Shown here piece by piece: positions 19,494 through 36,457 of a stretch of DNA of 64,000 bases. The stretch comes from a virus (Duplodnaviria > Caudoviricetes). The DNA lies in IMG/VR virus record IMGVR_UViG_3300005440_000009, positions 1 to 64,000 of that record. One strand, 5' to 3'. A model generated the notes under the pieces. It was not told the DNA's origin. It searched no databases and saw only the letters and a list, made by a program, of their open reading frames with translations. Numbering within the stretch: position 1 is the first letter of the stretch; every line of letters begins with the position of its first letter. The position numbers and the translations under genes were made by a program.

Positions 19494-20309
19494 TCACCGG
19501 GTGAGGAAGATCGCCGCGGCGGCGACGGCTAGAACGGCCAGGACGATGGGAACCGCGCTCGAAGAGCCCTGACTCGAGCTCGGCGCGGGAGTCGGCGCCG
19601 GCGGCACCGGGAGGGTTTGCGCCGGGGGCGGCAAGGGCGCCGGGGTCACCGGGATCGGCGGCAGCGGCAGCGGCCATGGAAGCTCGGCTGGGTAGCCCGG
19701 TGGCCGCGCTGGGGGCCACGGAGAGCACGGCCAAGTGCCCGGGAGCAAAAGCGAGCATGCGGGGGGAGGAGTCGCCGGAAAAGCGCCGGTGGGCGGCCAA
19801 TCGAGGCCGGTCGCTTCCTTCCAGCCGGGCGGCTCCGGAACGCCCGTCCAATTTTGCGGCGGCGTGGTTTGCCCTAGATGCCCGCTTTTGAGCGTCGTGA
19901 CAGCGGCCCAGGACGCGCAGTCTTTCTGCCAAAATCCCGCATCAGTGACGAAGGAAAACGCCTTTTTCCAGTAGCCCTCACCCGCGTACCACGCCTCGAT
20001 CGTGGTCGACGTGCCTGCGGGCAAGTGGGCTTTGACCCACTCGCATGCGGCAACGCGCGGATCTTCGTTCGGTTCGAGCTCGAGGTTTCCCGAGCTCGAG
20101 AAGCCGTTGACGACGAATTGCCAGATCGGACGCCTCGGCATGAGGTCCGAGGTGCTCATCGAGAAGACTTGGGAGGGGTTCGGGAGCGAGGAGCGAACGA
20201 GCCGGGGGATGGTCGTCTGTACTTGGACGCGCGAGGCGCTCGGCGCGACGACCACGGCGGAACGCACCACTTGTGCGCTGAGAGCGCCGGACCATTTCAA
20301 GAGGGCCAT
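19494..20309 (-). CDS. Trp-motif membrane protein (Pro-rich stalk, C-terminal TM)
   Basis: MALLKWSGAL; GHLGQ; AVPIVLAVLAVAAAAIFLTR. Confidence 0.65.
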   Translation of the reverse strand: MALLKWSGALSAQVVRSAVVVAPSASRVQVQTTIPRLVRSSLPNPSQVFSMSTSDLMPRRPIWQFVVNGFSSSGNLELEPNEDPRVAACEWVKAHLPAGTSTTIEAWYAGEGYWKKAFSFVTDAGFWQKDCASWAAVTTLKSGHLGQTTPPQNWTGVPEPPGWKEATGLDWPPTGAFPATPPPACSLLLPGTWPCSPWPPARPPGYPAELPWPLPLPPIPVTPAPLPPPAQTLPVPPAPTPAPSSSQGSSSAVPIVLAVLAVAAAAIFLTR

Positions 20310-20833
20310 TAGCTTTTATCCTTGGCAGTCGCGAAGGTTTGCACGAAGAGCTCGACAGCGGCGCTCGCCGCAAGCGAGTACTTCATGAGGGTTTTCGGAT
20401 CGCGGACGCCGATGGCAGCGAGACCGATGCCGACCTCGATCGCACGGGAGACGAACGACACGAAAAGCCGGAGCCATGCGCCGGACTTTCCCGCTCGTAT
20501 TTCGTCGGCAATCTCGCCGGATGGAAGCGGCTTTTGGCCGCGGTTGATGTAGGCGAAGGTCAGGACCGAAGCTTCGATCGCGCCGCCGGCCGCGAGCGAG
20601 TATTTCACGAGGTCCGTGCCGCGCGCGCCGGCCGCTGCGAGGCCGGCTCCGATGATGAAGGACCGGCCGAAGTAGTGGAGCATCACGGCCCAGAAGGCGC
20701 CTGGCTCTTTCTCGACGAAGGCGTTGGCGCTTTCTTCTGACGGCAGCGTCACGCCCAAAAAGGCGAGATCGATCGCGCGATCGGCGACCGCGATCGCCGT
20801 CGTGTCGATTGGGGTGTTCCACCGGAGCGCCAT
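20309..20833 (-). CDS. Trp-motif polytopic membrane protein with internal duplication
   Basis: MALRW; two halves GAGLAAAG..LVKYSLAAGGAIE / GIGLAAIG..LMKYSLAASAAVE. Confidence 0.65.
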   Translation of the reverse strand: MALRWNTPIDTTAIAVADRAIDLAFLGVTLPSEESANAFVEKEPGAFWAVMLHYFGRSFIIGAGLAAAGARGTDLVKYSLAAGGAIEASVLTFAYINRGQKPLPSGEIADEIRAGKSGAWLRLFVSFVSRAIEVGIGLAAIGVRDPKTLMKYSLAASAAVELFVQTFATAKDKS

Positions 20834-20842
20834 GGCCTCATT

Positions 20843-21250
20843 CTACCTTGAATCCGGGTCCTTCCCGCTTGGGGTGCGGGATCGGTAGCCGGTTTCGGTG
20901 CGAGGGAGCCGCACAACGGGTTGCTCGCGGTCGCTCGAGGGTCGGAAGCCGCCGAGGCGCTTGATTCCGTCGATGATCGATCGGTGTTCTTCGGCGGCGC
21001 TCTCGCCGGTCTGCTCGATGGAAGCCGTCAGGCCCTGGACGGCATTGGTCAGTGCTTGCAGCGCCTTGGTGTTGTCGCCGATCTGATCGGAGAGCTCCTT
21101 CATGCGCTCGAGCGTGCCCTCGATCAGACGTTCCTGGTTTTTGGCGGAGGACTGCACGTAGATGATCGCGATTTTTCCCGCGAACCAAATCACGACGAGC
21201 AGGACACCGAGCGCGCCGAATTGCAGGAGCGTGGGATCGATCACGTTCAC
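20843..21250 (-). CDS. holin-like single-TM coiled-coil protein
   Basis: LLQFGALGVLLVVIWFAG then heptads; next to the endolysin; GTG at 21250 by overlap. Confidence 0.5.
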   Translation of the reverse strand: MNVIDPTLLQFGALGVLLVVIWFAGKIAIIYVQSSAKNQERLIEGTLERMKELSDQIGDNTKALQALTNAVQGLTASIEQTGESAAEEHRSIIDGIKRLGGFRPSSDREQPVVRLPRTETGYRSRTPSGKDPDSR

Positions 21251-21636
21251 GGAATCACTTCTCCGTTCGTAATGTGACCGTGCCAGCAAGACGGCGTACC
21301 GACGTCGATCGACGGGGAGATCGACAAGTCGTCCAAACCGTTTCCGCTCATCTCCCAGCGCGGGCGCTGCGATGAATCATTCTTCGAGTGCGGTCCATGC
21401 TCCGATGGTAGTTCCGGAGCATTTCTCGGATTTCGAAAAGGCACCAGCACTGCGTGCGGGCGCCCGCCGTCGAGGGGAAACTCCGGCTTGCCGTAGCCGC
21501 AAGGGCACCAGAGCTGGAGTCCCTGCGCGCCCTCGATCTGATCTCCTTGGCGAGTATGCGTCATGCGTCCTTGCTCGTCTGCGCGCACGTTCCCGTAGAA
21601 CTTCGCCTCGAACCAGGGCTCAGTTAAGCGTGGCAT
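21247..21636 (-). CDS. DUF6527-like protein
   Basis: WCPCG...W..SG....LSISPSI....CWHGHITNGE. Confidence 0.65.
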   Translation of the reverse strand: MPRLTEPWFEAKFYGNVRADEQGRMTHTRQGDQIEGAQGLQLWCPCGYGKPEFPLDGGRPHAVLVPFRNPRNAPELPSEHGPHSKNDSSQRPRWEMSGNGLDDLSISPSIDVGTPSCWHGHITNGEVIP

Positions 21637-21662
21637 TCAGCGACTCTCCCACCACGTATCAG

Positions 21663-22442
21663 TCATGCGGCCAGCTTTTGCTTCGCGATCGCGAGCTCGG
21701 CCTCTTGGATCGCGTGCCAGGTGTCCATGCCGACGACGCCGTCGGGCTGTAGACCGTGATAGGCGATCTGGAACGCCTTGACCTTGGCGGCAGTCTTACT
21801 CCCGTACCAGCCGTCGTCGTCGATGCCCACGATGCGCTGGACGCGCTTGACGTCCTCGCCGCGACTCGGGATCGGGACGAGCCACGACCACTTCAGCACG
21901 CGCGCGAGCGGATCGAAGCCGTCGGGCATCTTTTCGCTGAGTGCGACCGCGGCGCGATTGACCGCCGAGCGGAGAGCCGCGTAGTGATGCGCGACGCGCT
22001 GCGCCTTGGTGGCGCCGAAACCCCGATAGTAGTTGGTGTCGTAAAGGGCTTCGCTCACCGCATACAGATCGCCGGTTTTGGCAGCCTCGAGCACCGAGGG
22101 GCGCTTCACGTACATCACGCGCACGAGGTCGGCCCAGCCGAGCTCGGGGGTTGCGTAGCGTCGGAAGCACACCTGATAGGGCACGTTCGTGCCGGTGTTG
22201 GTCGGGTTGGTGTCCGTGTAGAGAAAACTCGTTGCCGGATTGCAAGGTGGATTGCCAGCCTGGATCGCGCCGATGTTGTTCGAGCCCGCGCCGTCGCCGT
22301 GCCAGCCGGCGCCGTAATCGGTCTCGAGCCAGCCGACGCCTTGGCAGGCTTGCAAAACAGCGCGCAGCGGCTCAGCCTGGACGCCGAAGTTTTTTTCGTA
22401 GCCGCGCGTGGTGTAGAGGCGCGCGTCTTTGTGCGTCGTCAT
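21663..22442 (-). CDS. endolysin: lysozyme-like domain plus peptidoglycan-binding domain
   Basis: GWLETDYG..NNIGAIQ..FRRYATPELG; C-terminal VKRVQRIVG..DDGWYGSKT..VKAFQ..LQPDGVVGMDTW. Confidence 0.8.
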   Translation of the reverse strand: MTTHKDARLYTTRGYEKNFGVQAEPLRAVLQACQGVGWLETDYGAGWHGDGAGSNNIGAIQAGNPPCNPATSFLYTDTNPTNTGTNVPYQVCFRRYATPELGWADLVRVMYVKRPSVLEAAKTGDLYAVSEALYDTNYYRGFGATKAQRVAHHYAALRSAVNRAAVALSEKMPDGFDPLARVLKWSWLVPIPSRGEDVKRVQRIVGIDDDGWYGSKTAAKVKAFQIAYHGLQPDGVVGMDTWHAIQEAELAIAKQKLAA

Positions 22443-22582
22443 CGAGCCCTCCTTGCCATTTGCCAAAACAGCGCGATGAAGCCCACGACCAAAACGGCAC
22501 CGATGAAGGTCAAGCGCTCAGAGCGCGGCAGCCGATCGAATGGCAAGCCCAGCGTCATCGGTTTTTCCCAGCGGAGTATCAT
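22439..22582 (-). CDS. 47-aa Trp-motif membrane microprotein (below track cutoff)
   Basis: hand-translated MILRWEKPMTLGLPFDRLPRSERLTFIGAVLVVGFIALFWQMARRAR; ATGA overlaps at both ends. Confidence 0.75.
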   Translation of the reverse strand: MILRWEKPMTLGLPFDRLPRSERLTFIGAVLVVGFIALFWQMARRAR

Positions 22583-22830
22583 CCTCCGATTGGCTTCATT
22601 TGCAGCCACTCACCCGCGGCTTTCTTGTTCGCTATCTCGAAAGAAGCCGCCTCGAAGGCGCGCACCCAAACGGCCGGATCAGTGACCTTGCCGCTGGTTA
22701 GCGCGAAGTCGAGCGCGCTTTGAAGGATCGGCATGATCGTGTCGGCGACCAGCGGCTCCTGCTCGGCGAGGATCAACAAGCGATTGACCAGGCCGAGGTA
22801 GTTTTCCGGAATAGGGACGGGGACGTTCAT
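22579..22830 (-). CDS. hypothetical protein
   Basis: MNVPVPIPEN, ATG at 22830 with ATGA overlap. Confidence 0.55.
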   Translation of the reverse strand: MNVPVPIPENYLGLVNRLLILAEQEPLVADTIMPILQSALDFALTSGKVTDPAVWVRAFEAASFEIANKKAAGEWLQMKPIGG

Positions 22831-23045
22831 TTTTGGCACCTCACCCACTGCTTGAGCCGGTCGTGAAACTCGGCGTCGATTTCCTTCTTGGCTTCGCAGC
22901 GGTCGTCTTGGCCTTGGCATTTCTCGGCGAGGCTCGCGTGATACCACGCGCCGATCGCGGCCATGTCTTCGACCGAGCACGCTTCGTTGTGGACCGAAGC
23001 GCACGCGGAGGCGGCCATCGCTAGGAGCCCGATGAGGGCATGCGC
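22827..23045 (-). CDS. probable small lipoprotein (spanin-like); start unresolved
   Basis: ALIGLLAMAASA-C lipobox and paired Cys; no convincing in-frame start just before the signal. Confidence 0.4.
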   Translation of the reverse strand, partial: AHALIGLLAMAASACASVHNEACSVEDMAAIGAWYHASLAEKCQGQDDRCEAKKEIDAEFHDRLKQWVRCQK

Positions 23046-23311
23046 ACGCGATCGGTTAGAATTTTTATCTTTACCTGGACAGCGACGAAGCCGATCCGGA
23101 GACCGACATGCGGATCGCCGATCAGATAGGTCACTTGGACGTAGCAGGTCGGCCCCGTGTACTCGCCCACGTTCGAGGACCACTCCCGGAGCTTCAGGAT
23201 GTCGCCGAGGGCAATCGGCGGGTCCGCTTCGCAGATCAGGAAGTGGAGACGCTTCTCCGCGATCGCCCGATAGGTCGGGACCTGGAGTTTGATTTCTCGA
23301 AATGCGCTCAT
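23021..23311 (-). CDS. DUF3850 / ASCH-like protein
   Basis: GDILKLREW....GEYTG...VQVTYL. Confidence 0.7.
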   Translation of the reverse strand: MSAFREIKLQVPTYRAIAEKRLHFLICEADPPIALGDILKLREWSSNVGEYTGPTCYVQVTYLIGDPHVGLRIGFVAVQVKIKILTDRVRMPSSGS

Positions 23312-24000
23312 GCGGCACGACTCACCACTTTCGTTAGCACGTAGACCGCGCCAGCCGCCAAGGCCACCAGGGCGATCGCTCCTCCGGCGCTCGCTCCTTG
23401 GGCAACACCCGAAGAGCCGCCGCCGCTCGGCATCGGCTCGTTTCGCGCTTTGGTGATCGCCTGAAGGTTCTTGGTCATGGCGGCGATGTGTTTGCTCAGC
23501 GCGAGCTCGAAGTAGTGCGACTCGCGCATCACTTTGGAGAAATTCGCGATGTCGCCCACGTTGGCTGCCGCGAGCACTTTCGGACGCTGCTTGTAGAGCA
23601 CCTGGATGAAGTGCGTGAAGCCCTCATCGGGCGAGCCGTACTTACGGAAGCAAGCCTGGTAGGCCGTGCTTCCGTGCTCGGGACCGCGATGATCGGTCGC
23701 CTCGAAGCAGTTGCTCGAGCAGGGCGGCAGACCGCACTGCACTGCGCCCATGTTCCAGGTGTTGCAAGTGGTCGTGCCAGCGGGGATGTTTTTGTAGCAG
23801 GCTTGTCCGTAGTAGGACTCGCCGCGCGAAACGGCTTGCGCGAATTGGGCCTCTAGTAACGTCGGCGCTCGGCCGAAAACGACCTTGAACGCGTTTTCGA
23901 TGAAGGTGCGTGCGGAAACGTCGCTTATTTGTGCCGCACCGAGGCCGACTTGGCTCGCGCCAAGCACTCTCACCTCACCGAGCCAAAGAAGCTTGGACAT
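23308..24000 (-). CDS. membrane-anchored muramidase-like protein (candidate entry lysin)
   Basis: catalytic region aligns with the endolysin (GESYYG, NMGAVQCG, FRKYGSPDEG); MSKLLWLG start; C-terminal TM. Confidence 0.7.
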   Translation of the reverse strand: MSKLLWLGEVRVLGASQVGLGAAQISDVSARTFIENAFKVVFGRAPTLLEAQFAQAVSRGESYYGQACYKNIPAGTTTCNTWNMGAVQCGLPPCSSNCFEATDHRGPEHGSTAYQACFRKYGSPDEGFTHFIQVLYKQRPKVLAAANVGDIANFSKVMRESHYFELALSKHIAAMTKNLQAITKARNEPMPSGGGSSGVAQGASAGGAIALVALAAGAVYVLTKVVSRAA

Positions 24001-25667
24001 CAGCGTCTCCGGGAACGTTTCTTGCGCTTCTGTGCAGAGCGTCCAATGGATGCGTACCGCACATGCACCTGATGCTCCTGTTTCACCGGTCCTTGACCTA
24101 GATCGCGCACGCCTTCGCCATTTCGCCGATGCAGTTTCCGCGCGATAAAGTTGAATGCCGCTTTCTGGGATGGCGCGTGCGACACGCGATAGACGGTTCC
24201 GTCATGCTTGTCGTAAACAAAGAAGACGCCAGTGTCGTGGAGGCGATCGATTTCTTCGATTGAGTAGACGTTTTGCTGACCTTCGGCGGCTGTGTCGATC
24301 GGACTCTTTTTGAACCAACCGGACCAGAAGGCGTTCTCGTTGCTCGGATTCGAACGTGCCGCTGGTCGCTTCGGCGTGGCCGCTGTAGCACCGCCACTTC
24401 CGCCACCGAATATCGCCGCGCCGAGACCGAGGAGCGCGAGCGCCCCGACCGCAATCAGGATGCCAGTGTTTCCGCCACCTTCCGAGCTCGGGGGCGTTCC
24501 CCCGCCCGGGATCGGAGTCGGAGGGATCGGCAGGGGCGTCACGACGCAGAGCTTGCTCACCGGATCCCAATGGAAGCCGGGATCGCACTGCGTGACGTCG
24601 CTCGGATTTCCCGGAACGGGAGTCGGCACGCGCGGAAGCGGCACTTGCGGAGTCGGCGCCGACGGAACTGGAGCGGATGGCGCGGGCGCGCTCGGAAAAC
24701 CGGGGTTCGGGAGCTGGCCCGGGACGATCGTGATGCCTTTGGCCTGCGCCCAGACTTTCAACGAGTAAAGGCCCTGCGTCGTCAGGTCTTGCCACGCGAT
24801 TTCGTTTTTCGTGGTCGGATTCGGGAGCGGCGGCGCCCAGCCGGATTTATTCCACCAGTTGTAAAAGTTCGCGAGGGTCCAGCCGTCGCGATCGCCCCAA
24901 ACGAGCGAGATGTCGGCCGGCTGAAGACCATAGCTGCCGATCGAGTTATTTCCGTCCGTTCCGTTCCATGCGGCGAGAATCGCCTTGGCCATCGCGACGT
25001 CGGCGTCCGGAAGGGCTCCTAGCGTGCCTGGCACACCCCGCACGAACGTGGGCGGGCGGTAGCCGCTCGGCACCGTCATGGGGGCCACGGTCGTCACCGG
25101 CTGGCGGTAGCCGCGCGGGGTCGTGGTCGAGAACGTCTTCGTCTGCCCAGAGAAGTCTGCCGGACCTGGAACGTACGGTGCGACGCACCCGAAGCTGCCG
25201 TCGGGGTGGACGATCTTTACGTAATTAGGAGGGCAGGTCGTCTTGATCTGCGTGCCGGTCTTGGTGATCTCGGTGACCGTGTTCCCGTCAAAGCACCAAT
25301 ACTTTTCCTTGAAAGGGCCATCTCCGACCACTTCAACAGCGCACACCTTGATTGGTTTTGAGATTTTTTTCGCCCACTCTTGGTACAGCATTTTTAGGTG
25401 CTGCATGCCGACCCAGCGAAGAGCTGTCAAAGTGAACCCACCGGGAGGTTCCCAAATCCCGTGTTGTGGAAAGGATTCTTGGTAATAGCGATTTAACGGA
25501 GACGGATCCCCAGATTGCTCCGGAAAAGCCGTGCTCTGATCCAGCACGCTGATAAACCAACGCCCGCTCGTGTTCCACCACTGCCACTCGGCTGGCGTCA
25601 TGCCGATTTGTCCCGGCGCGCCGAGCACTTGGACCTTCTCTTCTAGCCATCGCATCGACATGGACAT
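24000..25667 (-). CDS. Trp-motif multidomain membrane protein with basic tail
   Basis: ATG at 25667 (TGATG); MRWLEEKVQVLGA; Pro stalk, TM, RSNP, ends KRKKRSRRR. Confidence 0.65.
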   Translation of the reverse strand: MSMSMRWLEEKVQVLGAPGQIGMTPAEWQWWNTSGRWFISVLDQSTAFPEQSGDPSPLNRYYQESFPQHGIWEPPGGFTLTALRWVGMQHLKMLYQEWAKKISKPIKVCAVEVVGDGPFKEKYWCFDGNTVTEITKTGTQIKTTCPPNYVKIVHPDGSFGCVAPYVPGPADFSGQTKTFSTTTPRGYRQPVTTVAPMTVPSGYRPPTFVRGVPGTLGALPDADVAMAKAILAAWNGTDGNNSIGSYGLQPADISLVWGDRDGWTLANFYNWWNKSGWAPPLPNPTTKNEIAWQDLTTQGLYSLKVWAQAKGITIVPGQLPNPGFPSAPAPSAPVPSAPTPQVPLPRVPTPVPGNPSDVTQCDPGFHWDPVSKLCVVTPLPIPPTPIPGGGTPPSSEGGGNTGILIAVGALALLGLGAAIFGGGSGGATAATPKRPAARSNPSNENAFWSGWFKKSPIDTAAEGQQNVYSIEEIDRLHDTGVFFVYDKHDGTVYRVSHAPSQKAAFNFIARKLHRRNGEGVRDLGQGPVKQEHQVHVRYASIGRSAQKRKKRSRRR

Positions 25668-26374
25668 CACCTCAAGAGCAGGGCAGCAAGCCCGAGCACC
25701 GCGCCGACGATCGCAAGTACGCCGACCGCTCCAATGCCCTCCGAGCTCGACGGAACTGACTGGATCGGCGCGGGCGGACTCGGAAGCGGCGGGATCGGAA
25801 CGGGCAATTCTGCTTCGGGACTCGGTCCGCACTGCTTAACGCACGCGACCAACGCAGTGGGGTCCGTCGCGTGCGCGGACAAGCACGCGGACTGGCACGC
25901 GGCGTAGGTCGCTGAATATGACGGCTGCGGCTGCGTTCTGGGGCCGCACGCCGCGAGGCATGCGCCGAGACTTGGCAGATCGCCCGCGTACTTCTGCTGG
26001 CACGCGAGCGCGCAATTGAGCGGAGGCGCGGGGCTCTGACCGGGATTGATGACGCCCTTTTCCACGCCCCATTGCAGAAGCGCCTGGAGATGCTCGGGCT
26101 TTAGATCGATCCATGTATACGAGCCGGGCGCGGGGAAGACCGCGGGCTGCTTATTGTTGGCCTTCCACCAATTGGCGAAGCAGGCGAGCGCGTTTCCATC
26201 GCGCGTTTTCCACGTGGTCGGATCTACGTCGTCCGGCTCGAGGCCGTAGCCGTTCACGCAATTTTGGCCGTCGGTCGTGTTGAATGACGCGAGCAAAGCT
26301 TTGGCTTGCGCGTTCGAGGCGGGGTCGAGCGCGCCGAGGAAGTCCACTTTCTTTTCGAGCCAACGCATCGCCAT
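25667..26374 (-). CDS. Trp-motif membrane protein with CX3C modules
   Basis: MAMRWLEKKVDFLGA; domain paralogous to ORF 24000; C-terminal TM. Confidence 0.65.
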   Translation of the reverse strand: MAMRWLEKKVDFLGALDPASNAQAKALLASFNTTDGQNCVNGYGLEPDDVDPTTWKTRDGNALACFANWWKANNKQPAVFPAPGSYTWIDLKPEHLQALLQWGVEKGVINPGQSPAPPLNCALACQQKYAGDLPSLGACLAACGPRTQPQPSYSATYAACQSACLSAHATDPTALVACVKQCGPSPEAELPVPIPPLPSPPAPIQSVPSSSEGIGAVGVLAIVGAVLGLAALLLR

Positions 26375-26386
26375 TTCGCGAATCCT

Positions 26387-26761
26387 TTAGCAGTACAAAG
26401 CATTGTAGGTAGCGGGGACTAAATCACCGACGATGTAGGAATAGGCTTCCGCGTATCGCTTCCATCCGGTCTTCGACCAATACCAAATCAGTTCGTAACG
26501 CCACGGCGGATTCTTTGCGACGACGTCGGGCGCCTCTGGCCAACCACCGCCGAACGCGGCCATGATGCCGACGTAAGGCCCTTTATCGCGAACTTTGTAC
26601 CAGCCCTTTGATCCCAAATCCCACTGCCACAGTTGGGAATAAAACCAGGCGACGAACGTGACGCCTGGATAGGGCGACGGAGCAAAGACGACGTCGCTCG
26701 GTTCATTTCCGCAGGTTTTCCCAAGCCAGCGCGGGACGATGCTTTCGATGGGATGATTCAT
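26387..26761 (-). CDS. aromatic-rich hypothetical protein
   Basis: 124 aa, in operon. Confidence 0.55.
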   Translation of the reverse strand: MNHPIESIVPRWLGKTCGNEPSDVVFAPSPYPGVTFVAWFYSQLWQWDLGSKGWYKVRDKGPYVGIMAAFGGGWPEAPDVVAKNPPWRYELIWYWSKTGWKRYAEAYSYIVGDLVPATYNALYC

Positions 26762-26768
26762 GGGCTAA

Positions 26769-27356
26769 TCACCGTGAGAGAAACAGGGCGGCGAGACCAA
26801 CCGCCACCGCAACCACTACGAGAGCAACGCCGCCGCCGACGGCCGCGGGCGTGGTCGCCACGAGTGGAGTGGTCGACGGTTTTTTGGTCGCCGGAGGTGA
26901 GTTCTTGACTGTTGAGCTTGCCGTGACAGCGGCGACGATGCCGCACTTCTTCAAGCAATCTCGTGCCGCTATTTTGAGCGCCTCTTCATCGGTTCCGAAG
27001 GATTCTTGAGCGTACGCGTCCATGCACTTCTTGATGCACGGGCTCAGCAGGACCCCGGCTTTTTTCATTTCTTTCGTTGTCGTCAACGGATTGCAGGGCC
27101 AACCAGTTGGCGGGAACTTGCAGGGGGGCAGAATTCCTTGGTTGCACATTTCGATCATGCACTGATTTTGACAGGGCGTGATCAGGACTGCTCCGTAGCC
27201 CGTGATGCCTGCCGCATAGCAAAGCTGGTTACAAGCGTCTTGATTGTAGAGGTCCGCCAGGCACTCAGCGGACGTCGTCTCTTCGAACAACCCGAGACGA
27301 CCGCTCCACTTCACCGAGGAACGCGGGCCGACCTGGCCGCGCCAAGCTACGATCAC
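26769..27356 (-). CDS. Trp-motif Cys-rich membrane protein
   Basis: GTG at 27356 (GTGA overlap): VIVAWRGQV..GRLGL; CX3C pairs; C-terminal TM. Confidence 0.65.
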   Translation of the reverse strand: MIVAWRGQVGPRSSVKWSGRLGLFEETTSAECLADLYNQDACNQLCYAAGITGYGAVLITPCQNQCMIEMCNQGILPPCKFPPTGWPCNPLTTTKEMKKAGVLLSPCIKKCMDAYAQESFGTDEEALKIAARDCLKKCGIVAAVTASSTVKNSPPATKKPSTTPLVATTPAAVGGGVALVVVAVAVGLAALFLSR

Positions 27357-27724
27357 GGGTTTGCTCTCATGTGCCCGCGTCCGCCCGCGAACATGATCGC
27401 CGCGGCGACCGCGAGCGCACCGCCCAGCAACCAAACGATCACGGGCACGCCGGACGAGGCCGACGAGCTCGCGGGAGCCGGTGCCGGCGCGGGGGTCGGG
27501 GGCGGGGTCGGCACGGGGACCGGAATGCCGGCGTTGATGACTTCGCCGATTTTCGCGGGGAGCTCCGCCGGGGTGAGGCCGCACGCTTTCAGGCACGGCT
27601 CGATGCACGTGAGGAACGGGCGGGCGTTGGCGCACGATTGCGCGCACAGCGCCTCGCAGTTCGAGAGGGCGCCGAGGCGCCCGTTCGGGCGGAGGGCGAC
27701 TTGTCCGGACCAGGATTGGATCAC
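27353..27724 (-). CDS. Trp-motif Cys-rich membrane protein
   Basis: MIQSWSGQV..GRLGA; CEALCAQSC..CIEPCLKAC; TM; ends RANP. Confidence 0.65.
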   Translation of the reverse strand: MIQSWSGQVALRPNGRLGALSNCEALCAQSCANARPFLTCIEPCLKACGLTPAELPAKIGEVINAGIPVPVPTPPPTPAPAPAPASSSASSGVPVIVWLLGGALAVAAAIMFAGGRGHMRANP

Positions 27725-29061
27725 GCTGCCGCCCTTCTACGCTTCGGGGCCGAGCGCCGACGCTTTTGCGAACGAGCTCGCGCCGCGCGCGCGGGCTGCT
27801 TCGGGAGGTTCGGGGCGCGCATGCCCAAGAAGATCGCGCCGACGGCCGCGCCGATGCCGAGGAGCCAGCCGAGGCCCGCTCCACCGCCAATGCCGGCGGT
27901 GGTCGCCGCAGTCACGCACGAGCCGTCGTCGGCTCGCTTGTAGCCGGTCGGGCACTTGTCGACGCATTTCGTGCCGAAGCAGTCTTGCGTGGGTCCGCAG
28001 CTCGTGGGCGTGCAGGGCGGCGGGGGCGGAGGCGTGCCGCCCCCACCGGTCTTGCAATCGGGATCGAAGGCCGACGAAGACGAGTTCGCGAGGATCGCGC
28101 CGCACGAGGGCGGGACATTGACCGACGAGTCGATGTTTTGCTGGACGTAGGCCGCGGCCGTGCACGTGGTCGGTCCGAGCTTTCCGTCGACTCCGATCGG
28201 GCAGATGTTTTGCGTGCCGAGTGCGTTGTTGATCTGCGTTTGCAGACCAGACACGTCTTGACCACCGGGGCCGACGGCTCCTGACGCTTTCGCTTTGCAG
28301 TCGAGATCGGCGGCTTGCACGCACACGTTTTGCGCGACCCAAGCCGAATAGCCGGGGCTTCCCGGAGTCGCATCGGCGCCGGGGTTTAGCGACACGCATT
28401 GCTGCTGACGCTGATTCATGCAGGTCTTGTAGGCGACCGAATCGGTCACGTCGCCGAGTCGGCCCTCGCCCGGTCCAAAGAGGAACGGCACCGGCGGGCG
28501 CGTAATGCGCGTCGAGAATTGCGTGGTCGTGACGGTCGTTCCGCCGAACGGCTGAGCCCCGAACGGGCTCAGCGGGATGCTTCGACGAATGAACGCCGTG
28601 AACGGAAACGGGTAAACGAACGGGATGGGATTCGGATTGGGAGGCGGAGGAGCGTTTCCGATCTGCGTCTTGACGCCGTCGTAGGTGCAATACCAGACCG
28701 GCTGCATCAGGATGTTGACCTTGGTGTACGCTCCGCACACGGACTTGTACGGCGCGGCGACCTGCCACGAGTTGAACGCCTGCGTAATGCCCGCGTAGCC
28801 TTGGGCGTGCGTCCGCAAGTGTGGACCGCTCGTGCCGACGAGCTGGCCGTTGTTGTAAAAGTAATAGGTCCAGTACTCGAGCTCGTAAGGCGCACCGACG
28901 CCTTCCTTCGGTCCGAGCAACTGCTGAGGCCCGCCGGCTCCGCCGCGATCGTGCAAGAACACCGGCCGGAGATTCGGCGGCATCACGGCGCTGCCGAAGT
29001 ACGCTCGCGCGCTCGGTCCGGTTTGCGTCTTCACCGGGTCAATCCATTTCACGAGCGCCAT
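27721..29061 (-). CDS. Trp-motif membrane protein with peptidoglycan-binding-like motif
   Basis: MALVKW (ATG at 29061, TGATG); GEGRLGD; VSGLQTQIN..IGVDGKLGPTT; TM; Arg-rich tail. Confidence 0.65.
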   Translation of the reverse strand: MALVKWIDPVKTQTGPSARAYFGSAVMPPNLRPVFLHDRGGAGGPQQLLGPKEGVGAPYELEYWTYYFYNNGQLVGTSGPHLRTHAQGYAGITQAFNSWQVAAPYKSVCGAYTKVNILMQPVWYCTYDGVKTQIGNAPPPPNPNPIPFVYPFPFTAFIRRSIPLSPFGAQPFGGTTVTTTQFSTRITRPPVPFLFGPGEGRLGDVTDSVAYKTCMNQRQQQCVSLNPGADATPGSPGYSAWVAQNVCVQAADLDCKAKASGAVGPGGQDVSGLQTQINNALGTQNICPIGVDGKLGPTTCTAAAYVQQNIDSSVNVPPSCGAILANSSSSAFDPDCKTGGGGTPPPPPPCTPTSCGPTQDCFGTKCVDKCPTGYKRADDGSCVTAATTAGIGGGAGLGWLLGIGAAVGAIFLGMRAPNLPKQPARAARARSQKRRRSAPKRRRAAA

Positions 29062-29951
29062 CAGCGTGGTCCTTTCGGTAAATCTTCGCAGCACGGGAAA
29101 AGCTCAACGGCCAAGCCGCCCGCAACGCGTCCGTACACGACCGGCAAGGGCGTATCGAGCTCCTCGAAGGCAGAGACGAATTGATCCTCGGGACGACCGA
29201 CGCCCGCAGGAATGTTGAGCGCGCAGCGGGTGACCGCGTTGGTCTGATGCACCGAGGCGTAGAAGGTCACGCGCCCAGGGCCGAGCACCGGGATCGAGAG
29301 CTCGCGCGCCGTCGGATCGAGATAGCGCATGTCGCGCCAAGTCCCGAGCAAGTCGACGTCAGCGCCGGGCGGGATGCCGGCGCCCGGGGGTGTGTACGGC
29401 AGGAAGGGCGGCACGTAGAGCAGGGCCGCGTCTTGGCCGCTCATCGACGGGCTCGTGCCGTCCGGTTGCGCGGGATCGTTGACCGACTCGGGGGAGAAGC
29501 GGTGGGGCTCGTAGCGCAAATGCCAGGAGATGTTGCCGTCCTGGAAGTGCCAGCCGGGGGACGTGATCTCGAGCTCGACCGGGACCGGTCCGCACTCGGG
29601 GCTGCGCGATTGCGGCACCGTGCGGATCGTCGCGTACTGCCAAATGCCGCGGATCACGATCGCGCGCTTCTTGTCGATTTCGACCTGAAGCAACCGAATC
29701 AAGTAGCGCTCGGCTTGCGATCGCGTCGCGTTGTCAGGAACGCGCACGCCGAGCGCGCTCGTATCGCCGAGCCACGGCGTCGATCCGATGCCGAGCAAGT
29801 CGGGATCGTAGGACTGCGTGAAGAGCTCGATCACCGCGCGGCAGTCCCAACGCGGATCGGCGCTTCCCAAAAATGAGGGATGGCCCACGACGCCCGCGCG
29901 CTTGGCGCGTTCGGCAGAGAGAGAGATTACGGATTTGGCGTTTGCCGACAC
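29061..29951 (-). CDS. beta-rich capsid-associated candidate (penton/minor capsid?)
   Basis: 296 aa, alternating hydrophobic strands, no TM; third gene of the capsid-candidate trio. Confidence 0.4.
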   Translation of the reverse strand: MSANAKSVISLSAERAKRAGVVGHPSFLGSADPRWDCRAVIELFTQSYDPDLLGIGSTPWLGDTSALGVRVPDNATRSQAERYLIRLLQVEIDKKRAIVIRGIWQYATIRTVPQSRSPECGPVPVELEITSPGWHFQDGNISWHLRYEPHRFSPESVNDPAQPDGTSPSMSGQDAALLYVPPFLPYTPPGAGIPPGADVDLLGTWRDMRYLDPTARELSIPVLGPGRVTFYASVHQTNAVTRCALNIPAGVGRPEDQFVSAFEELDTPLPVVYGRVAGGLAVELFPCCEDLPKGPR

Positions 29952-29965
29952 GGGCTATTCCCCTT

Positions 29966-30679
29966 TCAGGGGCAGCCCGGCCCCAAATCCCTCGGAGCGA
30001 AAACGCCCTCTGCCTGGAGCTCGTCGATGATCTGCGTGAAGTCGCAGCCGTTGTAGAGACCGGTCGGAAGCCGCGTCCCGTGAAACGTGATGATCGCCTC
30101 GGTCGGCACTTCGTCGGCTTGGAGCGTGCGGAGGTTGGTGAAGATCGCGTCGAAGGTCGCGGAGCACTTCAAGACCAGGCCGGCGGGACAGACGCACTCG
30201 AAGACCGCTTCGATGTTTTCGAGGGGGGTCGGCTCGGTGTTGATGAGATAGTTGCAGAACGAGTGGATGATGAGCGAGTTCAGGTCGATGTTGGGGTTCA
30301 GGCGATTGAAGTAATCGGACTGAGCCTTCCAGATCGATCCTGCGGCGAAGTTCGGGCGACGCACCGTATAGGTGACGCGCCGGATCCAAATGTCGCTTTC
30401 GACCGTGCCGAGCATCTGACCCAGCACGGGCTTGTCCGCCGTGGTCGCATCCCAACGCGCTTTCACGCTGAGCATCACCCAGCCGTTGGTCTCGGTCACC
30501 AGCCAGCCGTCGCCAGCCATGCGGTAGCCGAGACCCTTTTTCGCGGCCTGCAAGAGCGTGTGCGCCAGCCGTGGCTCTTGGAGGGCGATCCCTCCGAGCC
30601 ATTGCGGCGCCGCCGCTCGGCGCGCCCGGGCGAGCGCGGCCGAAACCTCGTCGCCCGGAGCTGTGTTGGGTGCGTTCAC
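29966..30679 (-). CDS. candidate single jelly-roll capsid protein
   Basis: 237 aa, beta-strand pattern (IWIRRVTYTV, AIITFHG), directly after the MCP candidate. Confidence 0.4.
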   Translation of the reverse strand: MNAPNTAPGDEVSAALARARRAAAPQWLGGIALQEPRLAHTLLQAAKKGLGYRMAGDGWLVTETNGWVMLSVKARWDATTADKPVLGQMLGTVESDIWIRRVTYTVRRPNFAAGSIWKAQSDYFNRLNPNIDLNSLIIHSFCNYLINTEPTPLENIEAVFECVCPAGLVLKCSATFDAIFTNLRTLQADEVPTEAIITFHGTRLPTGLYNGCDFTQIIDELQAEGVFAPRDLGPGCP

Positions 30680-30702
30680 TTAAAAAGCGCCTTCTCTGGA
30701 CC

Positions 30703-31887
30703 TTACTTCGCCGAGGCGAGGAGGTTGTCGAACTGCTTTTTGACGTCTTCCGGCAGGCCGTTCAGGGCGCCGCGGTTCGCGATGAGCTTGCTCGTCAGGT
30801 AGCTGCCGATGCCCACCTGCTGGTAGAGCATTTCGAGCGCGCTTCCCGAGGTCACGCCTGCGAGGTACTCCACGCAAGCCGCCGGCACGAGGTCGTAGCC
30901 CGCGAGGACCGCGCCGATCGTGAAGCAGCCACCCGGAACCGTGTAGATCCCGGCGTTGCCCGAGCCGCACTCGAGCGTGTCCGTGAACTGGCTGCTCGGC
31001 AGAGTCGGGCTCGCGCAGTCGAGGACCGCGTCGCGCCGCATCGCCGGGAAGAAGCAGCAATCCCCTTCGACGCGCGTGAAACGGACGTCGATGGTCATGC
31101 CGGGCAACCAGAGGATCGGGAACGGCAGCGGATAGCAGCGGTTCGAGATGCCCTTGGTGTGCTGGCTTCCCCACATCGCTTCCGCAGTCGGCGCGGGCAT
31201 GCACTCGCTGCCGGCGGCGGTGTTCTGGGGGATGAATTGCTTGTTGCAACCCTTGGCCACGAGCACGTCGTTGACGTCGCGATTGAACGGAGTCGTGGAG
31301 ATCAGCGAGTTGCCGCTCCCGACGAATTCCATGGTCGCGCCGACGAGACCCATCACGTGGGCCGCTTCCTCGAAAATCTGGAAGTGGCGCCCAATGAACA
31401 TCGAGACGCGATACGCCTGGAAGAACTTCTCGATGATGTTCCAGGTCGGGTAACCCCAAGCGAGCACCGCGTTGTGCTCGTCGAGCGCGCCCGTGCAACC
31501 GGTCACGCAAGGGGTCGGTCCACCCGAGGCGACCACGTTCTTCATCACGCCCGTGAGCGCGAAGCCCTGGCCCTCGGCTGTCGCCAAGATGCCGAAGCCC
31601 ATCATGAGGAACGGAGTCTCGACGGTCGTCCCGCGCGAGAGGTTGGTTTGACGACCGGGGCAGGCTTGCGGCTGGTCGAGCGTGAAGAGGCGGATTTCCC
31701 CGGGGAATGCCGCGTCGAATTCCTCGGGCGTCATCGGCAGTTGGTACTGCGCGATGTCGTAGAGGCGCGCGGTCAAGCGCGAGAGCGGGCTCTTGCCCGC
31801 CATGATCTGGCCGAGCATGCCGCCCTTGTGGGTCGGCTCGATCTGCGAAAACTGCTTGTGGTCTGCCTTGATAACTTCGGTCGCCAT
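30703..31887 (-). CDS. candidate jelly-roll major capsid protein
   Basis: 394 aa; LYD..F..TNL..PF..GFGI, YPLPFPILWLPG..IDVRF, IGAVLAGY strand pattern; GGA-containing RBS region; fold is inference. Confidence 0.5.
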   Translation of the reverse strand: MATEVIKADHKQFSQIEPTHKGGMLGQIMAGKSPLSRLTARLYDIAQYQLPMTPEEFDAAFPGEIRLFTLDQPQACPGRQTNLSRGTTVETPFLMMGFGILATAEGQGFALTGVMKNVVASGGPTPCVTGCTGALDEHNAVLAWGYPTWNIIEKFFQAYRVSMFIGRHFQIFEEAAHVMGLVGATMEFVGSGNSLISTTPFNRDVNDVLVAKGCNKQFIPQNTAAGSECMPAPTAEAMWGSQHTKGISNRCYPLPFPILWLPGMTIDVRFTRVEGDCCFFPAMRRDAVLDCASPTLPSSQFTDTLECGSGNAGIYTVPGGCFTIGAVLAGYDLVPAACVEYLAGVTSGSALEMLYQQVGIGSYLTSKLIANRGALNGLPEDVKKQFDNLLASAK

Positions 31888-31989
31888 TTTCTTTATCGAT
31901 CCTTTTTCAGCGGGGCCGGCCGGTGTACGTGCGCGGGCGACCCCGATGAATAAACGTGTTGGAGCAAACTTTTTGGTGAATTTTCGCGA

Positions 31990-33831: not shown

Positions 33832-33841
33832 GCACGAAAAG

Positions 33842-33871
33842 ATTATGGCCAGCGAAATCCGTGCTCGTCAA
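33842..33871 (-). promoter_or_regulatory. sigma70-like promoter for the core/capsid operon
   Basis: TTGACG (33871-33866), 18 nt, CATAAT (33847-33842), 10 nt, ATG at 33831. Confidence 0.65.
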
Positions 33872-34430
33872 CAATGCAGCCGTGCGGAAGCGGCAAACGC
33901 CACCCCAAAGTGCGCTTGCTATAACGCACCTCAACGGGCGGATCGTATTCGTGCTCGAACGGTTTGTCGAAGCCCGGACGCCGATAGCGAATGAGACGCA
34001 CGCGCGCTAAGCGCGCCCACGGTCCCTCGGGAATTTCCACCGATCCGTAAGTGAGAGGAAGTGGGCGATCGTTCTGGTCGATGAAGTACTTTTCTGCGTC
34101 ATCGAGCACGTCAGCAGGTGCGTTTTTCGCACCTCCTCCGCGAGCTCGAACAATATACAAATCGCACCGGTCCAAAAGTGCGCCGGTCGTGTCGTGCACG
34201 AGCACATACCCCCGCGGGAAGGTCACGTCGGCCGCCGGCATGCGCGGTTCCCAGAAGACTTCGCGCTCTCCGTTTGGTCCGGTCGCGCGCACGATGCGGC
34301 GCGCGCCGGAGTTTCGCACGCGTTCGACGGACACGAATTGGATGTTCGTGCCGCGCACGATCATGTGGTGCGTGTAACACGCACCGGTCGTGCAATCTTC
34401 GGCTTCGACGATGCGGCCGGAGTCCGTCAT
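33843..34430 (-). CDS. hypothetical protein
   Basis: 195 aa; TAATG coupling. Confidence 0.6.
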   Translation of the reverse strand: MTDSGRIVEAEDCTTGACYTHHMIVRGTNIQFVSVERVRNSGARRIVRATGPNGEREVFWEPRMPAADVTFPRGYVLVHDTTGALLDRCDLYIVRARGGGAKNAPADVLDDAEKYFIDQNDRPLPLTYGSVEIPEGPWARLARVRLIRYRRPGFDKPFEHEYDPPVEVRYSKRTLGWRLPLPHGCIVDEHGFRWP

Positions 34431-35296
34431 TAGGCCGCTCGCGCCAATTGACGACTCGGCGGAAGCGCGCGCGAGCTCGAGCGTGCACCCGCTGGCGGCA
34501 CCAAGCGCACGAGTGCGTAAAGCACACCGAGACCGAGCGCGACCAGCGCGACGGTCTTAATCGTGTTCGTGATGTCGGTCGTGGGCTGACTGCCGGCTTT
34601 GATTTGCTCGACCTTCTGCGCGCGCACGGCAGCGGCGCCGGTGTAGATCGATTGGTTTAGCTTGGCGGCTTGGTCGGGCGTGCATTTTCCGGTCGTCACG
34701 CACTCGTAGGATTTCTCCGCGATCGTGCGCATCGTCTTTTGCTCGGCAACGTCAGTGATGTTGTTGACTGCTTTCTCGACCGCCCAGTACGCCGGGAGCG
34801 CGAGCACCGTGACGCCCAAGGTGGTAGCCCACACGATCGCGGGCACTCCAACTTGCCCTTGCACGTGCGTTTGCTCACCCGCGGGATTCACGATGATCGG
34901 CACGTCGCCATTGAGCGCCAAGCGCACGACGTCCGACGAGAGCCCCTCGATTTCGAATTGATTCTTTTCCGTGTTCCAGGCGACTTTGCGCTTTCCGGCG
35001 ATCGCGTCGTTTAGGGCGTCGGTGATGATCTTCACCATCGCCATCGCGTCGACTGCGTTCTGGTCGAGATCCGAGGACCATGCCGACGCGCTCGACATGC
35101 CCGGGGCGGCTCCACCCTCGGGGCCAGCGCCATCGACCAAGAACGGAAGGCCGAGGTTTTGGCGGACCGTCTTTAGCCCGGTGTAGGCGGCGACGGCTCG
35201 CGTCCACGACGCGCTCAGATTGTCGCGGAGCGCCGTCAGGTACGCTTCCCAGGCTTTTTCGTCGGCGGGTTGGCCCAGCCATCGCAGCTTTTTCAT
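34430..35296 (-). CDS. Trp-motif membrane protein, two hydrophobic helices
   Basis: MKKLRWLGQ (ATG at 35296); IVWATTLGVTVLALPAYW and VALVALGLGVLYALV. Confidence 0.65.
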   Translation of the reverse strand: MKKLRWLGQPADEKAWEAYLTALRDNLSASWTRAVAAYTGLKTVRQNLGLPFLVDGAGPEGGAAPGMSSASAWSSDLDQNAVDAMAMVKIITDALNDAIAGKRKVAWNTEKNQFEIEGLSSDVVRLALNGDVPIIVNPAGEQTHVQGQVGVPAIVWATTLGVTVLALPAYWAVEKAVNNITDVAEQKTMRTIAEKSYECVTTGKCTPDQAAKLNQSIYTGAAAVRAQKVEQIKAGSQPTTDITNTIKTVALVALGLGVLYALVRLVPPAGARSSSRALPPSRQLARAA

Positions 35297-35454
35297 TTGA
35301 TGAGTCTCGCGCGGTAGAGGTTGATTACCAGGGAAGTCGCTGAAATCAGCAGGCCCGCGATCGCGAACCACTCAATTCTCGAGAGCTTGTGGCCGTCGCC
35401 CGGGATCTCTTCCGGGGCGGCGGAAACCTGACCGGACCAGCGCAAAATGGCCAT
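35293..35454 (-). CDS. 53-aa Trp-motif membrane microprotein (below track cutoff)
   Basis: hand-translated MAILRWSGQVSAAPEEIPGDGHKLSRIEWFAIAGLLISATSLVINLYRARLIK; ATGA overlap with the next gene. Confidence 0.75.
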   Translation of the reverse strand: MAILRWSGQVSAAPEEIPGDGHKLSRIEWFAIAGLLISATSLVINLYRARLIK

Positions 35455-35464
35455 CGCTCGCCCT

Positions 35465-36457
35465 TTAGAGTAGCGCCCAAATTACGAGCGCGACAATGCC
35501 GGCGCCGATCGCCAAGGGCGCGATGCTCGAGCCGCCGCCCCCGCCACCGCTCCCGGCCGCGGCGATGTTCTTGAAGTCGATCTGCGATTTGAGCTTTTCG
35601 ATGAGCGGCTCCATCGCTTTGCTCGGGAGCTCCGTCAAGCACTGCGGATCTTCACCGTGCATGTTGCTCGGCGTCTTCGGGTCGAAGACGTTGAAGAATC
35701 CCGCCGGACAGTCGCCCTTACTCTGAAACCAGCTCGAGGCGTTCTCCATGCGCCCGACCGCGAACCAATCGATCGGCTCGCCGGGCTTGGCGATGGGGCC
35801 GAAGTTCCCGTTGAAGTAGGTCAGCCAAACGTAGTCCTTACACGTCAGCTTTTCGTTGACGATGCCGAGCTTCTTGGCGACGGCGCACTCGTCGAGCGCC
35901 GTCTTGGTGAGCTCGAACTTTTCATACGCAAGCGCGGCCGCGTAGCGCTCGGCGCTCGGCGCAAACTTCGAGAACACCGGCGCCGGTGGCAAGCCCGCTT
36001 CAGTCAGCGCCACGTCGGAAGCGCCTTGGCTGATGGCCAGATCGCGGAGCGTCAAATAGGACTTGACGGCGAGGATGCCCTTGGCCGCGCGCTTGGCTCG
36101 CGGCGCCGTGAAGTCGTTCCAGGTTTCCGAAACCAAGTCCTCCATGGTCGATCCCTTGGCCACAGGGATCGATTTTCCGATGAAGCCGCCGATGATGCCG
36201 CCCAAGATCGCGCAGCCGCCCGCGACTGGAGCAGTCACTACGAAGGCCGAGCACGCCGCAGCGCCACCAATTGCGCCGCCCACCTCGCCGTAGGCTTTCA
36301 GATCCGCCGAGCTCGTGCCGCCCTTCCGCTCGATGATCTCTCTCGTGAGCGGATTGGTTGCCTTGTCCATTCCGGAATACGCACCGAGGCCGACGGGCCG
36401 CCTCGAGCTCGGCGAAAGCACGAGCGGGACGGACGCATTCCAGATGAGGGCGGACAT
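35465..36457 (-). CDS. Trp-motif membrane protein with glycine zipper and C-terminal TM
   Basis: MSALIW..PVGLGA; GGAIGGAAAC..AILGGIIGGFIG; APLAIGAGIVALVIWALL. Confidence 0.65.
   Translation of the reverse strand: MSALIWNASVPLVLSPSSRRPVGLGAYSGMDKATNPLTREIIERKGGTSSADLKAYGEVGGAIGGAAACSAFVVTAPVAGGCAILGGIIGGFIGKSIPVAKGSTMEDLVSETWNDFTAPRAKRAAKGILAVKSYLTLRDLAISQGASDVALTEAGLPPAPVFSKFAPSAERYAAALAYEKFELTKTALDECAVAKKLGIVNEKLTCKDYVWLTYFNGNFGPIAKPGEPIDWFAVGRMENASSWFQSKGDCPAGFFNVFDPKTPSNMHGEDPQCLTELPSKAMEPLIEKLKSQIDFKNIAAAGSGGGGGGSSIAPLAIGAGIVALVIWALL

Follow-up and report, generated by a model that had tools for sequence, protein, structure and literature searches.

A tryptophan-centred N-terminal tag on proteins of a viral structural operon and a candidate transglutaminase-like reader

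Tagged proteins of the structural operon

The DNA stretch considered here (the window) comprises the first 64 kb (64,000 nucleotides) of the 77,617-bp IMG/VR record IMGVR_UViG_3300005440_000009, with a G+C content of about 63%. The virus is probably tail-less, with a candidate jelly-roll capsid and a particle that is probably lined by a membrane. The region between 19.5 and 37.2 kb is a single minus-strand operon, in which the genes are tightly packed and start-stop overlaps of the ATGA and GTGA types are frequent; all window genes described below belong to the minus strand. The products of twelve of these genes begin with a short peptide built around a tryptophan, termed here the tag, and the gene 36477-37223, at the upstream end of the operon, encodes a transglutaminase-like enzyme that is a candidate reader or protease of this tag. 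Pfam matches among the module proteins were confined to DUF6527, DUF3850 and PG_binding_1, the last in a peptidoglycan-binding endolysin, and nearly all products are orphans.

The preliminary description of this region had listed eleven tagged N-termini and a weaker twelfth (MSALIW), and all twelve are present on the minus strand at the coordinates given for them. Ten of the genes start with ATG and two (at 27356 and 27724) with GTG, and the chosen starts are supported by overlaps with the upstream stop codon (ATGA, GTGA or a one-base overlap; 8/12 genes). The codons of the tag vary synonymously (CTC, TTG, CTT and CTG for Leu; CGG, CGC, CGA and CGT for Arg; GGC, GGT and GGA for Gly), and therefore selection acts on the peptide, with conservation at the amino-acid level.

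Enrichment over the remaining open reading frames, a check proposed with the preliminary description, is confirmed. Tryptophan occupies one of residues 4-7 in 12 of the 24 genes between 19494 and 36457, compared with 12/93 elsewhere (per-gene expectation 0.08; binomial p = 7e-8 given the proteome Trp frequency; Fisher p = 2e-4). The pattern [WF][LS]G falls within the first 40 amino acids (aa) of 11/25 module proteins, with 0.8 expected, and of 2/92 other proteins; in relatives of the virus, it falls within the same distance in 14 of 72 proteins (2.7 expected). A scoring matrix trained on the window yielded nine N-terminal matches in 72 independently called proteins of the relatives, where 0.86 were expected, and the reverse matrix, built from the matches in relatives, yielded eight N-terminal matches in this genome, all of them within the module (1.4 expected). 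The Trp enrichment, the cross-validated matrices and the [WF][LS]G counts rule out a chance origin of the motif.

The consensus, drawn from 50 instances of the tag, contains two elements. The Trp element consists of a hydrophobic residue at position -2, Arg, Lys or an aromatic residue at -1, Trp at 0, and then either [L/S]-G-[Q/A/E]-[V/I] or x-x-P-[V/I/M]; in most carriers, the Trp is found at residues 3-12. The LG element is formed by a hydrophobic residue, L-G, and then [Q/A/E/V]. The two elements are either fused, as in the shortest tags (RWLGQ), or separated by 8-25 residues, as in RWLEEKVQVLGA and IWQKPLALRSLGA.

At the downstream end of the operon, the tag heads a 271-aa protein with a Pro-rich linker and a C-terminal transmembrane (TM) helix (19494-20309; MALLKWSGAL), the gene of which has an ATGA overlap with the upstream gene, and a 174-aa protein with TM segments (20309-20833; MALRWNTPI, with FLGV at residues 25-28), whose orthologues in the related viruses L007 and L003 keep both elements. 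A tagged muramidase-like protein of 230 aa (23308-24000; MSKLLWLGEVRVLGA) ends in a TM helix. Its neighbour of 555 aa (24000-25667; MSMSMRWLEEKVQVLGA) has a TM helix at residues 402-420 and then a 135-aa tail ending in KRKKRSRRR, and one of its domains is common to a 235-aa protein with 10 Cys and a C-terminal TM helix (25667-26374; MAMRWLEKKVDFLGA). Both genes with GTG starts encode Cys-rich products, namely a 195-aa protein (26769-27356; VIVAWRGQV and a second copy, VKWSGRLG) with 12 Cys and a C-terminal TM helix, and a 123-aa protein (27353-27724; MIQSWSGQV, then RLGA) with a TM helix. The adjacent 446-aa protein (27721-29061; MALVKWIDPV) has 16 Cys, a TM helix and a 32-aa tail with 13 K/R, and its L007 orthologue begins with MGALKWLDPV. 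The basic tails of 27721-29061 and 24000-25667 could contact DNA across the membrane. Closer to the upstream end are the tagged core protein (34430-35296; 288 aa; MKKLRWLGQ) with two TM helices and a 330-aa protein (35465-36457) that starts with MSALIWNAS, continues with GLGA at residues 22-25 and has three TM segments. The remaining two of the twelve are the microproteins described below. A thirteenth carrier, absent from the earlier list, is the TM-free 124-aa protein 26387-26761, in which residues 10-15 read PRWLGK.

According to the preliminary description, nearly all tagged proteins have a C-terminal TM helix, none has a classical signal peptide, and the ectodomains are mostly unrelated. 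A TM segment is indeed predicted in all 12 proteins by the Kyte-Doolittle scale, although it is truly C-terminal in only about 9 of them: 24000-25667 extends 135 aa past its helix, 20309-20833 has a mid-protein helix and a 33-aa tail, and 34430-35296 has two helices. At a Kyte-Doolittle threshold of 1.8, TM helices were found in 11/12 tagged vs 1/13 untagged module proteins (Fisher p = 3e-5). The other two statements are upheld. The first 23 residues of the tagged proteins contain no hydrophobic segment (no Kyte-Doolittle segment of at least 1.6 starts before residue 24), and the tagged N-termini contain no twin-arginine pattern of the RR-x-F-L-K (Tat) type. Once the first 25 residues are left out, alignments remain for just two pairs of proteins (21663/23308 and 24000/25667), which rules out simple paralogy as the origin of the tag; within the first pair, 23308-24000 and the endolysin 21663-22466 are paralogues with 32% identity (E 2e-20).

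Two tagged microproteins had been proposed to lie hidden in the operon, and one of them is confirmed by its orthologues. The 53-aa product of 35293-35454 (MAILRWSGQV; one TM helix) has counterparts at the same position in L007, L009, L003 and L010, all with a tag and one TM helix, which identify 35293-35454 as a real gene. The family was missed by gene callers: the L003 orthologue (L003:2549-2803; MADLRRVRWLGE followed by a TM helix) was left uncalled by the source pipeline. The 73-aa orthologue in L009 (L009:11512-11733) carries three tandem tags (RWLGEV, RWLEAP and RWLGQ) ahead of its TM helix. The second candidate, the 47-aa product of 22439-22582 (MILRWEKPMTLGL; one TM helix, basic end), is backed only by start-stop overlaps of the ATGA type, one at each end of the gene, with the stop of the preceding gene and the start of the endolysin gene. 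The codon score is neutral, and a search for orthologues yielded none at E <0.3. It is a plausible gene.

The tag, the enzyme and the capsid proteins in related viruses

The major capsid proteins of the relatives are about 38-75% identical to that of the virus studied here (69% in L007, 58% in L003, 42% in L004 and 38% in L005/L006), and in these viruses the gene order is kept and the tag again heads many module proteins. The tag is conserved in five related viruses, on orthologues and on unrelated proteins alike. Although 27 orthologues of 34430-35296 share just 35-89% identity overall, all of them retain the Leu of the tag and most the Trp, with 3-13 residues ahead of the Trp or its substitute. 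Tag-less orthologues of 34430-35296 and 35465-36457 in L004 begin approximately where the proteins of the window continue past the tag. Longer, fused forms of the 34430-35296 family were sought and none was found, which is weak evidence.

Tag-headed enzymes of the relatives include SLT lytic transglycosylases (one with DarA_C), a protein with a weak CHAP match and a GDSL lipase, and some of these enzymes are free of TM helices, e.g., the SLT enzyme L005:8204-9130. Seven adjacent small genes of L010 (L010:4831-7607; 65-123 aa) all start with M-x-[FY]-F-W-[QE]-N-P (FFWQNP type) and encode products without an evident TM helix; by their sequence, these starts are a lineage-specific form of the Trp element. 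The occurrence of the tag on TM-free proteins of relatives implies that it marks proteins of the virion module and not membrane proteins as such. The earlier idea of a tag for membrane cargo therefore retains the strong TM association in this genome, but it does not accommodate 26387-26761, L005:8204-9130 and the seven FFWQNP proteins of L010.

The 248-aa protein encoded by 36477-37223 is conserved in the relatives from which the region was fetched and belongs to a family of 470 representative clusters. Its AlphaFold2 (AF2) model (predicted local distance difference test score, pLDDT, 90.9) has a transglutaminase-like fold with a Cys112-His145-Asp160 triad. In Foldseek comparisons, the model matched the putative cysteine proteases 3kd4 and 3isr, PNGase and TG2 with probability 1.0 and structures of the site-specific protease LapG with probability 0.98-0.99, and the protein Atlas gave 0.96 to Transglut_core clusters. 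Of the comparisons with PDB, only the fold search was informative; those with the sequence and with profiles returned nothing meaningful. PF01841 (Transglut_core) was matched by 11 of 20 homologues (best E 3.5e-8), while the protein of the window is itself below the Pfam threshold. Across 70 homologues, C112 and H145 are never substituted, and the conservation of D160 is at least 90%.

The motif recurs within the enzyme family. The protein of the window starts with MPAPW, and in this protein and the homologues P0051-P0070 a W-x-P-x-[V/I] peptide, which in sequence terms is a variant of the Trp element, is located 3-12 residues from the start, ahead of a conserved HPFGE block. Most homologues are longer than 36477-37223: their enzyme domain ends with FVGV[DN]G and is followed by one or two copies of the motif (VEWLGQ, VRWLGEVRWLGD, FAWLRSPAPQMLGQ) and then by a part that usually ends in a TM helix. 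Among 147 representatives, 32 of the 47 occurrences of W[LSIV]G are located no more than 40 aa past the end of the domain, often in tandem. In the homologue P0077, the part that starts just after the motif is homologous to the window gene 35465-36457, the sole significant match of this kind among the fused homologues, and the others resemble the P0077 arrangement by eye. In the window, the enzyme and 35465-36457 are separate genes, split in the linker, with a remnant of the motif, RVVWKPG, near the end of the enzyme and MSALIW opening the next gene.

Capsid proteins of the module contain the LG element as well. The candidate major capsid protein (30703-31887; 394 aa) has GMLGQ at residues 23-27, within an N-terminal arm modelled at low confidence; at this site, 11 of the 21 homologues have [ST]-[LI]-G-[QE] and 14 have [LI]-G. 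AlphaFold predicts a jelly-roll beta-sandwich for the protein (pLDDT 75), and the viral structures closest to this model are capsid proteins of membrane-containing viruses, namely SPV1 (Foldseek E 2e-4; VIA Z 6.1), HHIV-2 (Z 6.0) and HCIV-1 (5.4), followed by P23-77 VP17 (5.1) and PRD1 P3 (Foldseek probability 0.5); all these scores are weak and fall in a range where unrelated folds score too. The second protein of the capsid module (29966-30679; 237 aa) has QWLGG at residues 26-30, with LG retained in all four orthologues (WLGN, FLGE, TLGE and TLGE), and the third (29061-29951; 296 aa) has SFLGS at residues 26-30. Thus, the LG element lies 22-28 aa into all three jelly-roll capsid proteins, with [WF][LS]G at residue 27 in both 29061-29951 and 29966-30679.

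Possible functions of the tag

The preliminary description had interpreted the tag as a shared sorting or docking code. In favour of such a code, the motif is real, specific to the module, kept in orthologues and non-orthologues, and fits a signal of virion proteins; the restriction of the code to membrane proteins has to be dropped. We propose that the tag is a virion-protein signal that is recognized, and probably clipped, by the transglutaminase-like enzyme, a reading to which we give slightly less than an even chance. The tag would act as a short linear signal marking the proteins bound for the virus particle, and the enzyme 36477-37223 would recognize it and cut at or beside the LG element, with a scissile bond that could follow Gly or Trp. 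Such a cut would trim the short N-terminal leaders of membrane-anchored entry and ancillary proteins and remove the 22-28-residue arms of the three jelly-roll capsid proteins, and in relatives with a fused enzyme it would free the enzyme at its own C-terminal boundary. Before the clipping, the Trp element would probably help to bring the cargo into the assembling particle. Recognition, and probably cleavage, by the enzyme is favoured by the LG element in the capsid arms together with the concentration of the motif right after the Cys-His-Asp domain in the fused homologues. A maturation protease with a consensus site is likewise suggested by the motif at the domain boundary, by the same motif near the N-termini of virion proteins, including capsid proteins, and by the gene fission at that point. 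Sequence, fold and statistics establish the motif with its enrichment and conservation, its association with TM proteins and entry enzymes, the fold and triad of the enzyme, and the positional coupling of the motif to the enzyme domain; the proteolysis, the scissile bond and the recruitment step are inferred.

Three known systems bear on this proposal. In phage T4, the leader directs proteins to the particle during assembly, after which the virion protease gp21 cuts it off; the short consensus of this protease is also present in the T4 major capsid protein. The T4 head has an HK97 fold and a scaffolding core, and the protease is of the herpesvirus serine type and cuts after Glu. The N-terminal capsid targeting sequence is the sole feature shared by the T4 internal proteins (PMC3012670). 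The Trp element may be an analogue of this sequence, as the virus considered here also has a short N-terminal leader common to otherwise unrelated proteins (12-13 in the window, with the same in relatives); it differs from T4 in its jelly-roll capsid models, mostly membrane-anchored cargo and candidate enzyme with a Cys-His-Asp triad and transglutaminase-like fold, for which cleavage is presumed. We know of no sequence similarity of the tag to the T4 leader. The full consensus of the adenovirus protease (AVP) is (M/I/L)-x-G-x|G or (M/I/L)-x-G-G|x. AVP is a single cysteine protease that processes many virion precursors at a short Gly-containing consensus, e.g., IVGL|G (PMC4246237). The core of the tag (large hydrophobic residue, x, G, x) resembles the hydrophobic P4 and Gly P2 of AVP sites, whereas the whole tag reads [W/F/M/T]-[L/S]-G-[Q/A/E]-[V/I/P] and its presumed cut is followed by V, I, L or P and not by the Gly of AVP sites. 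The enzymes also differ in fold, and the host here is bacterial; no adenain/Ulp1-like protease was detected in Pfam scans of about 50 window proteins, a search from which some small open reading frames were absent and which divergent members could escape. As for the transglutaminase-like fold, LapG cuts its substrates at a di-alanine site near the N-terminus. LapG is described as a protease of the periplasm with surface adhesins as its substrates (PMC3032545, PMC4694147). LapG has the same fold and Cys-His-Asp triad as the 36477-37223 protein and cleaves site-specifically, and therefore this fold can serve as a site-specific protease; it differs in being a regulated periplasmic enzyme of the host that acts on a few adhesins, whereas the enzyme considered here is viral, is encoded in a structural operon and has a dozen putative substrates with a Trp/LG motif.

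Several observations weigh against recognition and clipping by the enzyme. Transglutaminase-like domains also act as amidases, crosslinkers and inert scaffolds. Little would seem to be gained by removing a leader of 5-8 residues that had not done its work beforehand. The residue after Gly varies (Q, A, E, V, G, D, K), the LG element is missing from several tags (e.g., WIDPV of 27721-29061), and tandem copies, such as the three in L009:11512-11733, suit binding avidity at least as well as cleavage. The motif at the C-terminus of the enzyme is modelled at low confidence and is not docked in the active site. Finally, co-variation of the enzyme and the tag was not demonstrated in a test with L011 and L012: in L011, which is more distant, the linker is an SGLIG repeat and the N-termini of the neighbouring proteins have no obvious matching tag.

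The same data can be explained by a pure docking code, in which the tag stays uncut. It would dock to a repeated site, provided either by the capsid lattice or by an assembly factor such as a capsid protein or the conserved soluble protein 33843-34430, and so gather membrane-anchored cargo under the shell. Docking peptides typically combine an aromatic anchor with hydrophobic positions, a multimeric receptor would be bound with greater avidity through the tandem copies seen in L009 and in the enzyme linkers, and the enzyme itself opens with a W element, as if it needed loading. The geometry is also suitable, with the tag at one end, then the TM helix, and then tails that are never net-acidic and that, being strongly basic in 27721-29061 and 24000-25667, could face DNA. 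Precedents are the cargo-loading peptides of encapsulins and the encapsulation peptides of microcompartments, short stretches at a protein terminus through which varied cargo attaches to the inside of the shell; these peptides remain uncleaved and serve soluble enzymes in shells of the HK97 fold or of bacterial microcompartment (BMC) proteins, with no membrane and no sequence similarity to the tag. In adenovirus, part of polypeptide VI, possibly its N-terminal peptide, is placed in the hexon cavity before maturation (PMC4246237). On the other side, an LG element is present in the capsid proteins too, and processing accounts more easily for the sharp peak of the motif where the Cys-His-Asp domain ends and for the gene split at this point. 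We regard docking without cleavage as a serious rival, less likely than clipping.

An improbable alternative is a membrane insertion or topology signal for the unconventional export of large N-terminal domains, N-out and C-in. In its favour, the proteins have no signal peptide, their ectodomains are Cys-rich (6-16 Cys) or are cell-wall hydrolases working outside the cytoplasm, and the short post-TM stretches are free of acidic residues (K+R is at least equal to D+E in all 12 proteins), so that the positive-inside rule places the tail in the cytoplasm. The tag, however, has neither a hydrophobic core nor a twin-arginine motif, it occurs on TM-free proteins, within capsid proteins and in the enzyme linker, and no export machinery is encoded nearby. 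The fold and triad of the enzyme would also fit a transglutaminase proper, for which the Gln after Gly (WLGQ, WSGQ, MLGQ), the commonest residue at this position in the window and in the 34430-35296 family, would be an acyl donor crosslinked to a Lys of a partner, fixing the cargo covalently. This seems still less probable, since approximately one-half of the tags have A, E, V, D, G, S, N, T or K at the position of the Gln, even within one orthologous family, and most microbial members of the fold are thought to be hydrolases. Least credible is a tag without a present function, left by common descent or a polyprotein ancestry or reflecting a nucleotide-level signal of the start region. Gene fusion and fission around the motif in the enzyme family and the paralogy of two pairs of tagged or neighbouring genes are compatible with a vestige; a signal in RNA or DNA is ruled out by the synonymous codons and the variable length of the leader, and a vestige would hardly keep its Leu invariant across 27 orthologues of such varied identity or head unrelated domains (SLT, CHAP-like, GDSL, Cys-rich) in different viruses.

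If recognition and clipping by the enzyme are taken in their broadest form, tail-less bacterial viruses with jelly-roll capsids, a widespread and uncultured lineage, would possess a maturation system of their own kind, in which a bipartite N-terminal address is read by a virion transglutaminase-like cysteine protease that selects, loads and clips a dozen membrane-anchored entry proteins, the capsid proteins and itself; we consider this possible but doubtful. Terminal targeting and processing peptides are known, and this tag is new in its sequence, its virus lineage and the type of enzyme coupled to it. If the proposal is true, prokaryotic membrane-containing viruses would, to our knowledge, gain their first described maturation protease with a consensus site. 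Maturation proteases of jelly-roll viruses are discussed only for the eukaryotic branch (PMC6260650), and a review of membrane-containing phages names only the PRD1 assembly protein P10 and no targeting signal (PMC6356626). A short transferable tag, coupled to a conserved Cys-His-Asp enzyme, makes both maturation and the selection of proteins for the viral membrane patch of these phages testable and, if the proposal is correct, would give a direct handle on that selection. The tag would also help to find short virion genes in metagenomic viruses, as in the case of the conserved microprotein, would flag entry enzymes, among them muramidase, SLT and lipase, and might allow the loading of foreign proteins into such particles.

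Virus context and neighbouring features

The virus was compared with tail-less, membrane-containing jelly-roll viruses of the tectivirus, sphaerolipovirus or portoglobovirus kind. A lipid membrane in the particle is suggested by the many small TM proteins of the structural operon. A scan of ten structural proteins against PHROGs gave zero matches, with neither a terminase nor a portal among these ten, and a search of the 77.6-kb record for the Walker A motif expected of an FtsK/HerA-type packaging ATPase yielded no plausible gene, although a divergent or uncalled gene could escape it. The search for a host or provirus revealed no integration, and its sole outcome was the free contig L008 (DASRAP010000433.1; 73.6 kb), which has a capsid gene 99% identical to that of the window and is binned in a Gemmatimonadaceae metagenome-assembled genome; this bin is a weak hint of the host or a binning artefact.

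In the downstream part of the operon, the ATG of the endolysin 21663-22466 (at 22442) overlaps the stop of the candidate microprotein gene 22439-22582, and a 135-aa protein with an N-terminal TM helix (20843-21250) is encoded further downstream. The candidate microprotein could double as a holin-like component of lysis.

Upstream of the enzyme gene, 38240-40144 (minus strand) encodes a 634-aa protein with long Pro/Gly/Tyr/Gln repeats of the PPGYPPQQGY type and a central coiled-coil-like part. The protein has no family match and a weak homologue in L004, and it may be a scaffold or matrix protein.

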